Source: Eledone cirrhosa
Taxonomy: Eukaryota
DNA: 64,000 nucleotides
Assembly: GCA_964016885.1 (NCBI GenBank)
Contig: OZ024753.1
Coordinates: 10,354,001 to 10,418,000 of the forward strand
Direction of reading: 5' to 3'
How positions within the stretch are numbered: the first letter of the stretch is position 1; each line of letters opens with the position of its first letter. The notes under the pieces are model-generated. The model did no database searches. It worked only from the letters and a program-made list of their open reading frames with translations, and had not been told where the DNA came from. Positions 14,672-49,186 of the stretch are shown in pieces. A program made the translations under genes and the position numbers.

Positions 14672-14870
14672 AGTTATGTAATAAACAACATAAGACAATT
14701 ATTCCATTGACCAAAGGTTTCACGAAGACAGACGTCTGTATCGAGCTCGTCTGTCTTCGTGAAACCTTTGGTCAATGGAATAATTGTCTTATGTTGTTTA
14801 TTACATAGCTAAATAGCTCTGTAGCTTACATAGAGAACTCTCCTTTCCTTTACCCTTCCTACGGAAATAT
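14672..14870. mobile_element. Fold-back insert, family A variant
   Basis: About 60-bp arms pivoting in the GAAGACAGA stem II; GAAACCTTTGGTC on both arms. Confidence 0.75.
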
Positions 14871-15784
14871 TATATATATATATATATATATATATATATA
14901 TATATATATATATATATATATATATATATATATATATATATATTTAAAAAAAAAATAGATCAGAGCAAACATCACGAGTGCTCTATCTCAAAAATATTTT
15001 TGAAAAGCATTAGAAATGCGCAACCGGTAAAAACTTAAAACTAAAACTGAATATTAACCAATACTTATTACTAATTTATACTTATTCCTAATTAAACTAT
15101 TTTTCACTGGAAAAAAAAAAAAAAAAATTATATATATATATGGCCTCAGCCGGATGGCTGAAACAGGTAAAAGAGTAATATAGCATATGTATTACATGAC
15201 TAAGTAAACAACTAATTTTTGAATATGTATATTTACTGGCTGACAAATTGTTTCGGAAGCTGTAAAATTAATTTCCACATTGAGTAAGTAATCACCGACT
15301 CTAAAATCGATAAACGTACAGTGTAATTTTCTTTACTAATCACTCTCCTCTTAGTTAGCTTACTTAATATTTGATATATAGAGAAACACCACAAACCCTC
15401 CATCTCAATTCTACTTTTGAAAAGCATAAGAACTGTGAAACCGGTAAAGGAAACAAATAAATATTCTTAAAAAGACTCCAGTTGCATTTTCGATTTCTTT
15501 TCCTTATACTTTCACTCGTGTAGGACATCTCGTTTTTTTTATTAAAAAATAAAAACTCATTTTCTAATATATATATATGTACATGTATATATATATAAGA
15601 AAGTGAGTTTTTATTTTATATATATATATATATATATATATATATATATATATATATATATATATATAATGTAGGAGGTGAGTTTTATTGTAGCACAATA
15701 AAGCAATGCAAATATCGGATAACATATGTTGATTTAACACTTCACTGCTCGCAAGTGTTTTTTAAGCTTCATATCATGTCTCCC

Positions 15785-15855
15785 TATTTTATCTGATGAG
15801 AACGCAAATATCATCCCATGATGATATTTGTTTTTGAAATGCGCATAATAAAATA
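15785..15855 (+). ncRNA. Complete type I hammerhead motif, family E (insert about 15670-15890)
   Basis: TATTTTAT CTGATGA [long stem II] GAAAT GCGC ATA ATAAAATA; perfect 8-bp stem I, palindromic GCGC loop III. Confidence 0.8.
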
Positions 15856-17145
15856 CATGGAACTCTTTTAACCATCTTTTCATCTTATATTATATATATA
15901 TATATATATATATATTGTAAGGATTTAGATCAATACAATGCTACAATTATTTCAGAGTCAGGTTCGATCATTGCATCGATCGTGCTTCGAGCTGGTCGCC
16001 AGAGAAACGATTGTCATATGTCTAATACATTTTATTGGTCGCACCACTGATTCTCCGTTTCTTATGTGATATATATATATATATATATATATATATATAT
16101 ATATATATATATATATATATATATATATATATATATATATATATACATACAAACATACACATTTATGATGTTTTCTTAAGCCTAGTTCAAGGCTTAAAAC
16201 AGAAAATACAACTAGTAATACCTCTAATGAAGGGTTTTATTATTTCGTTCAATATAAAGTCCCCACATTACAAAATATCAGAATCAAGGTACAACTTGTT
16301 GGCAGGTTGAAATCGAACCATAACATGCATTGATTACCAGATGATTTCATACAAATGAAACAGTTCTAGTCTTGTAGAAGTGATTTTTATATTGAAAATA
16401 AATATGCTTCTCCTCTGCCAATGTGCTGAGTACCTTATTTAACAGTGATTTTATTTCAATACCCTTCGGAAAACCATCATCAAATATATATTTATATATA
16501 TATATATCTATATATATATAGATATAAATTATTAAAAAAATAATGAATAAACAAAGAAACAGTTCCTTATATTAAAAAAAAAAAATTCATTATTTTACGA
16601 TCGTTTCTAGGATATATATGTGTTTGGACACTACCGTAAACTTTTGGTAGATTTTTCTACATATATATAGATATATATATATATATAGATATAGATATAT
16701 ATAAGAAAACAAACGACACAGTACAATGAAGAAATATATTAGTTTTACGCTTGATATACGAAAAGAGTCTTAACGTTTAAGAAATAGATTGAAAAATTAA
16801 AGAAGAAATAAGAAGGTAGAGGAAAGTCGGCAGTGGTAGAAACTAAAAAAAAATGTTCTTATATATATAATTCTCTTATCTATATAAAAGTTTATCCCGT
16901 GTTCAATCGGGGGTAACCACAGTAAGTAAGGTACTCAATATATAGCAGAGTATGAATATTTAATATAGAAATGGCTTCTACAGAACTAGAACTGTTTCAT
17001 TCGTATGAAATCATATATATATATATATATATATATACATATATAGTTATGTAAGTTATGTAATAAACAACATAGGGATAATTAATCCATTTACCAGTGG
17101 TTTCTTGAAGACAGATGTTTATATCTGTCTTCAAGAAAAAAGATT

Positions 17146-17214
17146 TTATTCGTTCTGACGACTGAAGACAGATATAAATATCTGTCTTCAAGAAACCACT
17201 GGTAAATGGAATAA
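17146..17214 (+). ncRNA. Complete type I hammerhead motif, family A (insert 17046-17310)
   Basis: TTATTCGTT CTGACGA c TGAAGACAGATA taaa TATCTGTCTTCA a GAAACC act GGTA AATGGAATAA. Confidence 0.75.
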
Positions 17215-17735
17215 TTATCTTATGTTGTTTATTACATAACTAAAAAGCTCTGTAGCCTACATAGAGCACTCTCTTTTCCTTTACCTTTCCTACGGAAAAA
17301 CTTCATTTATATATATATACACATAGGTAAAAAGTAAAAGTGAAAAGGCACAGAGGTATATTTAAAGAGTTTTTTTTTAATCCGTCCGAATGAATATTTT
17401 TATAATTGTTAGATTAAATGAATTTAAATCTTGTCAAATATAATCGGTTTCGATTGGTATATCAATCTTATCAAATATTAAAATCCTCAAATTCTGTGGA
17501 CTGTTAGAGCAAATATGAATTTTCTGTCATAATGTCTCTTCTTATGTTCTTTAAAAACAAGTCAAAATATATCGAAATAAAAACATCTCGTTTTCATTGT
17601 TACGTAAAAGCTCAATTGAAATTAGATGCGAAAATACTGTATTTCAGGGAATAATCAAATAATCATATTGCAGAAACAACAGCAATAATTATAAGATTCC
17701 CAGTTCCATCTCACTGCTTGAGACGTCCTCTAGAA

Positions 17736-46651: not shown

Positions 46652-46659
46652 ACGGGTAT

Positions 46660-47022
46660 ATCTATCTATCTAGGGCGGGTAAAATTCCCGAGATCCATGG
46701 ACGAGCTCTCTCCGGCGGTCTCTGTCCCTCATTATCGCTGCCATGTCCTGCGTCTCCAACAGACCAGTGTCTGTCCTTACGGCATCAACATACGTTCGTT
46801 AACCTTGGTCTGCCTCTTCCAGTGTGTCCATGTAGGGGCTCCCACAGGAGAACTGAGTGCAATGTCAACTCTGGATGTCGGTGAGCATGTCCAGCTAACC
46901 TCAGTCTCCTCTGTGTCACTTTTGAGCTGATTTTTGGGAGGCTCCCATACAGCTCTGAGGTTTTCATCCTCAGTGTATACTGATTAATGTTCAGAGCCAT
47001 CCTCAGCATTCTCGTGTAACAC
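46660..47022 (-). mobile_element. RTE LINE 3' fragment (family 2)
   Basis: Homologous to 5160-5513, with frameshift and (TAGA)n tail. Confidence 0.9.
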
Positions 47023-47319
47023 ACATCCACATACATACACACACATACATATATATATACATGTACACACTCAGACACACACACACATATATATATATAT
47101 ATATATATATATATACATGTACATGTACACACACACACACACACACACAAACACACACGTGTGTGTTTGTGTGTTCTATCAACAAACGATAAAACGATGC
47201 CAATTAAAGGAAAAGCTCGAAAAAAAAGGAGGAGATCTAACCAAATACCATCGGAATAGAACCAGCGAGAGAACGGCTCAATGTCAACATAGACTGACAC
47301 TGACATAGGGAACACCAGC

Positions 47320-48212
47320 ACCACCACTATATCCCCCACCACTACCTACACTCCCTCACCACCACTACAACCACGACCCCCCCACTACTGCCACCACTGC
47401 CTACACTCCTCCCCCACCACCACTATATCCCCCACCGCCACCTCCCCTACCACCACCACGTAGACTCCCCCACCACTACTACAACCACGACCCCCCCCCC
47501 CCCACTACTGCCACCACTGCCTACACTCCCCCCCCCACCACTATATCCCCCACAACCACCTCCCCTACCCCCACTACCCACACTCCCCCACCACCACTAC
47601 AACCACGACCCCCCAACTACTGCCACCACTACCTACACTCCTCCCCCACCACCACTATATCCCCCACCGCCACCTCCCCTACCCCCGCTACCTACACTCC
47701 CCCACCACCACTACAACCACGACCCCCCACTACTGCCACCACTACCTACACTCCTCCCCCACCACCACTATATCCCCCACCACCACCTCCCCTACCCCCG
47801 CTACCTACACTTCCCCACCACCACTACAACCACGACCCCCCCACTACTGCCACCACTACCTACACTCCTCCCCCACCACCACTATACCCCCCACTACCTA
47901 CCCCACCCCTCACCCACTACCCCACCCCTACCTCCCTATCACTACCACCACATCCCCCTACCACCACTATCTCTACTACTTTCACTCCCAACCACCACTA
48001 CATCCCCCTACCACCACTAACACCACTACTTACACTCCCCACCACCACTACATCCCCCTACCACCACTACCACCACTACCTACACTCCCCACCACCACTA
48101 CATCCCCCACAACCGCCACTACCTACACCCCCCACTACACCCACCACCCCTACCGCCACTATCATCACTACCCCCACCCCCACCCCACCCACCCCCTACC
48201 ACCACTACCACC
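47320..48212. repeat. C-rich degenerate tandem repeat
   Basis: Recurring ACTACAACCACGACCCCC...CCTACACTCC units of about 110 bp. Confidence 0.85.
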
Positions 48213-48985
48213 AAATCTCTAATTTACAAACAATACCAAAACAACAACATATAATCCCTAATAACAACAACAACAACAACATATATTCCCAAACAACAAC
48301 AACAACACCAGCTAACAAAGAAGGGGCAGTGACCTTGTTAGCAGAGGTCCCTTGTTACAGTTTATCAGGTTTGGTTTTCAGGGTTTAAGAAAGGAACCTC
48401 ACGTAATTATCCTAAACTAATATTTATTTTCATTAACACCAAGTGTTATTTCGTGCAGGGTATGTATATATATATATATATATATATATATATATATATA
48501 TATACATATATGTGTGTGTGTGTGTATTTATGTATATATATATATATATATATATATATATATACACATACATGTGTATGTATATATACATATATGTATG
48601 TGTATATATATATATATGTATGTCTGTGAATATATATATATTCATATATATATATATATACATACATATATATATGTATATATATATATGTATGTATATA
48701 TATACATATACATACATGTATATATATATATATATGTATGTATATACATATACATACATATATATATATATATATATATATATATATATATATATATATA
48801 TATATATATATATACACACATGTATATGTATATATATATATATACATATATGTATATATATTTAAATACATGTAAATATATTCAATGTCTAAAATTTTCA
48901 CTACCGCATTTGTATTTCTGCATCATGTATACACACACACACACATGCACACACATATATATATATTTATATATATATATATATA

Positions 48986-49186
48986 TAACGAAGGAAATGT
49001 GGTAAGGAACCAGGTGGACCATAACGCACCAAAGTACTCAATACTTAGGGTAGTAGAGTGGGTAATAGGAACAAATAAGACCCCGACGGCTGAGCTCAAG
49101 CCGTTTCGACGGCTAATTCTGTACTGAATACAGAATTAGCCGTCGAAACGGCTTGAGCTCAGCCGTCGGGATCTTATTTGTTCCTA
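48986..49186. mobile_element. Fold-back insert, family D
   Basis: Near-palindrome 49066-49186 with GAAACGGCTTGAGCTCAGCCGTC on both strands. Confidence 0.8.

Follow-up and report, generated by a model that had tools for sequence, protein, structure and literature searches.

Inversion junctions of Penelope-like fold-backs in an Eledone cirrhosa contig and their relation to hammerhead stem II

The stretch analyzed here, referred to as the window, is 64 kb of contig OZ024753.1 (positions 10,354,001–10,418,000) in the microsatellite-rich 3.0-Gb assembly of Eledone cirrhosa (GCA_964016885.1). Short repeats lying in (TA)n, many of them as fold-backs, emerged from comparison of the window with itself and belong to at least seven families. 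Judged by their motifs, these fold-backs are real insertions of the pseudo-long terminal repeats (pLTRs) of Penelope-like elements (PLEs) of the Hydra-clade type in (TA)n. The palindromes named in the initial annotation of the window all exist, and its recognition of inverted Penelope pLTRs with hammerheads is borne out by the PLE motifs, the (TA)n targets and the layout of the hammerhead ribozyme (HHR). It had further proposed that the inversions arise when a cDNA snaps back on stem II of the ribozyme, with loss of the CUGANGA half of the core. As a general rule this fails: stem II snap-back is a minor route of family A, and the ribozyme is mostly a bystander in the inversion.

Sample, elements and ribozymes

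Genome searches initially gave 439–2806 candidates per family query, which places thousands of short copies in the genome, and the best 40 candidates of each search were scored. Thirty copies per family were fetched with queries that begin at or just before GAAA, leaving the 5′ structure unselected; to these were added 30 copies obtained with an HHR-containing query and the 400 kb beside the window. Pairing of 685 arms from the window, the adjoining 400 kb and 270 genomic loci yielded 209 fold-backs, namely 111 anchored by a query, 49 in flanks (11 through the HHR-containing query) and 49 in the 464-kb block. By family they are A 44, B 20, C 35, D 82, F 22 and H 6. Family E stands outside this set, since the genome search with an E query returned no copies. 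Arm ends were called automatically against several natural references, with an error of a few bases.

Coding evidence comes from partial open reading frames (ORFs) read by eye. A family D copy (L074) has reverse transcriptase (RT)-like ORF pieces 3′ of its pLTR, with the motifs SDKTG and RWR. Endonuclease (EN)-like ORFs end 5′ of the H and F pLTRs, with a CxCX5C linker, CxxC and CxH in the H copy (L157) and CxxC plus CxH in the F copy (L253). The hallmarks given for the Hydra clade (Craig et al. 2021, PMC8557442) are DKT and RWK-type RT motifs, the CxCX5C linker and CxxC/CxH in EN; here the RT motifs were found in family D only, with RWR where RWK is listed. The ORF pieces found no significant match in Pfam, NCBIfam or PDB. 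Families A, B and C were assigned without a linked ORF, and the clade placement is by motifs, not phylogeny. The C-terminal EN+ PLEs of the Hydra clade also share with the copies examined here the preference for (TA)n, the pLTR hammerhead, the inverted truncated copy and the one-sided tail; an inverted, 5′-truncated pLTR with a tail on one side was found in 202 of the 209 fold-backs. Unlike what the same source describes, the present families have variant cores (D, B and H), long stem II inserts and, in D, a putative transcript start within loop II. In L074 (1432–3121) a broken RT ORF comes immediately after a D 5′ pLTR, and the putative start (1486) lies inside loop II. Non-LTR retrozymes were considered and rejected: head-to-tail tandem HHR units are expected of them, whereas these copies are dispersed, head-to-head or solo.

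The pLTR of each family has the layout of a minimal type I hammerhead, for which self-cleavage is predicted. Motif and pairing together give a CUGANGA core, GAAA, NUH and three stems in families A, C and F. Family D lacks the canonical core and has UUGAnAA, the U3-A8 variant; core covariation of this type is described for PLE minimal type I hammerheads (Cervera and De la Pena 2014, PMC4209133), which share with those here the short palindromic stem III and the long stem II. The D stems are 94% paired over five intact variants, with two two-sided changes, which for that measure is not beyond shuffles, and in intact genomic copies the native loop of D stem II is ~33 nt long. At the core position family B reads CCGUCGA in 24 of 37 copies, and family H reads CCGAAGA in 28 of 38, with a few CUGAUGA. 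Rfam returned no hammerhead among the 150 matches listed of 299 in the window, and none for 17135–17225 (family A1) or for a second short stretch including the D variant core. The A1 copy at 17146 is intact, with the core CUGACGA at 17155–17161, stem II at 17163–17190 and GAAA at 17192. Other families contribute additional CUGANGA-stem II-GAAA motifs at 39741, 41280 (minus), 40609, 61410, 997 (minus) and 5796 (minus); the stretches 39711–39813 and 41196–41310 around such motifs are related to each other.

Stem II as a joint

A pivot on stem II was recognized by a fixed GAAA–GAAA distance together with retention of the native loop. Seven fold-backs are in this register, six of the 44 in family A, including the one at 14672, and one of the 35 in family C, with none in B, D, F or H; the remaining 202 junctions lie elsewhere. 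The register is above chance in family A only, where it is seen in six of 38 fold-backs once six copies that owe their detection to the HHR query alone are set aside (P ~0.002 under a crude uniform null). The enrichment in stem II that was to be sought by mapping the axes on native structures thus exists in family A and not in the remaining families. The D copy L067 matches the distance solely through a duplication, the native loop being kept in 0 of 82 D fold-backs, and the H copy L154 has a complex junction related to stem II.

The initial annotation had placed the axis inside stem II in six fold-backs, in the B and H copies as a probability. One of the six, at 14672, does pivot there; three, the D fold-backs at 32706, 41501 and 49066, owe the loss of their core to something else; and two, at 6118 and 34112, retain variant cores, the pivot at 6118 lying upstream of stem I. 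The copy at 17146 had been taken as proof that the hairpin is stem II. Its hammerhead is indeed intact and 14672 is a true pivot, but the hairpin in D is the fold-back itself. In subfamily A2, to which the 14672 fold-back belongs, stem II is unlike the one at 17146. Fold-backs of the window that had not been named, at 369–546 (A), 6764–6893, 23362–23508 and 40295–40399 (C) and 43275–43556 (F), have their axis on the core or 5′ of it.

Similarly, the idea that the insertions are catalytically dead on both arms applies to one family. Of the 82 D fold-backs, 81 have no core on either arm, as against only 17 of the 127 others, where 110 keep it on at least one arm. The D junctions lie 12–25 nt 5′ of GAAA, inside the native loop. 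Moreover, in four of the six family A pivots the native loop is on the short arm, and these are therefore not products of copy-back of the tail-bearing cDNA. A brief copy-back on stem II would fit five nucleotides at 17134–17138. Pairs of HHRs 100–700 bp apart on opposite strands had already been noted in PMC4209133, the available text of which draws no link between parts of the HHR and the points of inversion; in the open-access literature we found no account that ties PLE inversion points to stem II, double priming or capped starts.

Two arms, a 5′ boundary and the routes of joining

A strict pairing governs the fold-backs. In 202 of the 209, one arm bears the tail and the other is short, ending at a fixed inner site 60–130 nt inward of the tail end. 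Toward the junction the two arms are on a par and are truncated independently: of 149 clean junctions 76 are ties, and the remainder divide into 42 in which the short arm extends further 5′ and 31 in which the long arm does, a division compatible with 50:50. Of 130 fold-backs of D, F, B and H, 24 reach the motif at +1 of the putative transcript with the short arm alone, 24 with the long arm alone, 14 with both and 68 with neither. In 19 composites a short arm is fused with an inverted stub that is tail only or nearly so; +1 is defined for 18 of them, and 8 of these begin no more than 1 nt away from it. In contigs of sequencing runs X1–X3, which represent one sample and possibly that of the assembly itself, 11 of the 15 joints listed (35 further) run from scattered tail positions and land on 49131. 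In L061 the short arm ends at +1 with an extra G of its own. Perfect palindromes without a loop form 14 of the 209 centres; from these and the stem II class we infer joining by microhomology. In family H, copies that stop at the short site (L151–L180) mostly comprise a long 3′ portion of a full element, which sets them apart from those of D.

The two arms agree at segregating sites: unanchored copies are discordant at 26 of 734, as compared with a background of 4.2% and 33% expected of an independent draw; arms that share variants point to one source. A first comparison, from which 22 irregular rows and 4 duplicates were excluded, had suggested two different source RNAs in D1 (9/23 discordant, at one site). 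This discordance vanished in the copies not selected by a query and was a selection artefact.

In D and F, arms and solo truncated copies alike have their 5′ ends concentrated on a single base (exactly −18 for 14 solo D ends; −112/−113 for 7 of 23 solo F ends). That base is the A of YYA(G/T), similar to the metazoan initiator (Inr), and YYAGT is kept in 5/5 intact D variants within a divergent loop II. Among bases before +1 that the element sequence does not explain, 10 of 11 are G, versus 28 of 135 at other ends. Genome-wide, the base between (TA)n and the F start is G in 87, A in 9 and T in 4 of 100 copies listed out of 122 (native C being excluded by the pattern), while a control two bases downstream (+3) has G in 1 of 7. 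At −1 of D, the counts are G 35, A 9 and C 56 among 100 listed; the F and D tallies were made by hand. The tail motif is missing from 21 of 26 F copies that have the extra G, so cDNAs begun at the short site would also reach the cap. An untemplated G is accepted as the signature of a copied cap in L1 and SVA, and marks full-length L1 ends (PMC4859970), and transcription of Penelope begins within the pLTR (PMC2377424). The F and D boundary hence looks like a capped transcript start, and D likely loses its core because transcription starts inside loop II, so that the transcript and both arms would be without the first half of the core. Predictions of transcript starts to the single base result. 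For the D start, a TATA box conserved 30 nt upstream was considered and dropped, as D1 has it and D3 does not; a splice acceptor as the boundary suits the AG of D and not F, B or H.

The inverted PLE pLTRs are probably produced by double priming, extension to the cap and head-to-head joining of the two cDNAs. Each of the two strands cut at the (TA)n target would prime a cDNA of its own, with the same source RNA as template; one RNA primed twice, or two RNAs from one locus, would both fit. The outer ends of the two arms would correspond to two internal RT start sites, and the enzyme would copy the RNA toward its capped start, the extra G being the copied cap. The 3′ ends of the cDNAs might then anneal via any short complementarity, such as palindromes of 4–6 nt, the strands of stem II or a few untemplated bases, and the joined cDNAs would form the palindrome. 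Stem II would serve as a microhomology of this kind in ~16% of family A joins and be almost unused in the other families. In L1 twin priming, both target strands prime and the cDNAs are joined by microhomology. The L1 cDNAs cover different parts of the RNA, resulting in an inversion, whereas those postulated here overlap and would result in a palindrome with fixed starts.

Priming on both strands has been observed in vitro for the Poseidon element PAc, whose enzyme, predicted to be a dimer, extends both target strands and uses two internal RT starts bracketing the tail (Frangieh et al. 2024, PMC11167929). PAc shares with the present families two fixed 3′ ends bracketing the tail, AT-rich targets and an uncleaved HHR in the inserts, while the tails are longer here (60–130 nt versus 30–40). 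The main text of that study does not address inverted arms or the joining of two cDNAs, and the present reading links its two-strand, two-start chemistry to genomic palindromes.

Several points weigh against double priming and the capped start. The start is read from DNA, and the Inr-like motif was chosen after the data had been seen. The base at −1 of D is mixed, and its most frequent state, C (56/100), is native in only 1/5 intact variants, so that the C class is only partly native; possible sources are transcripts that also begin at −1 and a native variant outside the sample. Candidate starts in B and H showed no cap-like G, and A gives only hints. In B and H the 5′ limit near a similar motif is less sharp, the B ends being scattered from −94 to −56. 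In addition, 111 of the 209 copies are the top-scoring matches to 3′ queries, and the concordance of arms is predicted by copy-back as well. PAc does not explain the strict pairing of a long with a short arm, because its start site in vitro is no different between strands (PMC11167929). Finally, central deletions after insertion could mimic some of the joins in which the short arm reaches further, which is the main escape for self-priming.

Self-priming at the 5′ end of the RNA is the strongest alternative, although an unlikely one. A tail-primed cDNA would reach the cap, fold back on any short complementarity and copy itself; the endonuclease would cut the copy at the fixed short site, and later central deletions would blur the junctions. 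Such priming was proposed in general form for inverted PLE junctions in 2013 (Arkhipova et al., PMC3846280), and the arms placed head-to-head, the palindromic junctions and the Inr-like motif in the pLTR are common to that proposal and our data. It accounts for the strict pairing and the arm concordance, agrees with the five copied-back bases next to the A1 arm, and is favoured by the view of the tail as an EN resolution product, expressed in PMC8557442. The same text calls inverted truncated copies with tails standard PLE anatomy, and names the origin of tandem and inverted pLTRs as unsolved. However, since the tail-bearing cDNA is the one that is copied back, the long arm must always reach further 5′, against the 31 versus 42 observed. 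Precise later deletions would also be needed for the composites of tail-only stub and short arm, the short arm of L061 with its G and the solo short-ended copies with G, and the loop-free palindromes count against self-priming too. The published hypothesis uses an antisense template, whereas the data favour two sense-templated cDNAs: both arms look RNA-templated, as judged from the short-further joins, the composites, the loops on short arms and the tailless copies with G. Junction statistics in a copy-rich genome can thus separate models of pLTR inversion, and here argue against the published idea.

Less probable still is that the 5′ boundary is a feature of the DNA and no transcript start, produced by endonuclease nicking or repair at T[CT]^A or by processing of the palindrome after insertion. 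Palindromes are prone to deletion. The frequent C at −1 of D agrees with such an origin, as do the B and H boundaries, which read C|ATT, given that PAc favours ATT sites (PMC11167929). Nevertheless, a DNA-level boundary leaves unexplained both the position-specific G of solo F copies beside (TA)n (87/100 listed, versus 1/7) and the fixed outer ends. Snap-back specifically on stem II as the general cause of inverted pLTRs and dead ribozymes is very improbable, since the family A copies in register and the coreless D arms are outweighed by 7/209 overall, by the cores kept outside D, by the loops on short arms and by Naiad PLEs, which make inverted copies without canonical HHRs (PMC8557442).

A stricter form of double priming can be put forward more tentatively. 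Priming would be obligate and asymmetric, with a dimeric RT-endonuclease that places both target strands on one capped RNA at two fixed internal sites, extends both to the cap and links the cDNAs head-to-head; with the D start inside loop II, the ribozyme at the 5′ end of the mRNA would be born dead and the 3′ copy would be intact. If true, placement of the D promoter would act as an off-switch of the ribozyme.

Individual copies and other repeats of the window

Coordinates of the fold-backs and composites are collected in Table 1.

Table 1. Fold-backs, composites and junction features in the window, in order of position.
Feature	Position	Strand	Description
A1 fold-back	302–554	−	Counter-example; pivot 5′ of stem I
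B fold-back	6118–6480	+	CCGUCGA on both arms (6232–6238 minus, 6275–6281 plus); short arm ends at Inr-like A 6263
C fold-back	6715–6893	−	Counter-example; pivot at CUGAUGA core
A2 fold-back	14672–14867	+	Short arm 14672–14721 minus, tail-bearing arm plus; GAAA 14761; true stem II pivot
Native distal stem II as junction of the A2 fold-back	14729–14753	+	6-bp CAGACG/CGTCTG pair, native 13-nt loop; compare intact A2 copies L194 and L207
F composite	15670–15890	+	Inverted tail-only stub and short arm from putative +1 (15724)
A1 short arm	17065–17133	−	Ends at 5′ edge of stem II
Five bases fitting copy-back of short-arm cDNA on its own stem II	17134–17138	+	Putative abortive snap-back
A1 long arm	17146–17310	+	Intact minimal type I hammerhead, GUA site 17202–17204, tail
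C fold-back	23362–23508	−	Counter-example; pivot 5′ of core
D composite	23750–23900	+	Inverted tail-only stub and short arm from putative +1 (23838), extra G ahead
D2 fold-back	32706–32909	+	Short arm (minus) reaches putative +1 A 32765 in loop II; both arms without core
H fold-back	33969–34442	−	Long arm (minus) retains CCGAAGA 34266–34272; junction at core, 5′ of native stem II
C fold-back	40215–40399	−	Counter-example; core on both arms
D fold-back	41421–41617	−	Long arm minus; short arm starts at putative +1 A 41557; core absent on both arms
F fold-back	43270–43565		Pivot ~96 nt 5′ of GAAA; left arm reaches putative transcript start; both arms tailless
D1 fold-back	48986–49186	−	Long arm minus, past putative +1 A 49125; both arms without core

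Family E is represented at 24443–24670 by a perfect 106-bp palindrome with a tail and has relatives at 14961 and 15380, with no clear core. Another short family abuts C and H inserts (40410–40485 and 34480–34545) and occurs in fold-back form in the flank of L086. On the minus strand, 44798–45904 holds an open frame of 368 aa that resembles, by eye, a non-LTR reverse transcriptase; related shorter pieces lie at 5001–5513 and 46674–47021. Tandem arrays occupy 1733–3159, 12020–13058 and 36053–37483, with units of ~60, 61 and 25 nt, respectively. An abundant dispersed repeat of ~190 nt, in size like a short interspersed nuclear element, is found at 18600–18794, with copies at 19964, 37476, 52603, 57193–58085 and 62878.

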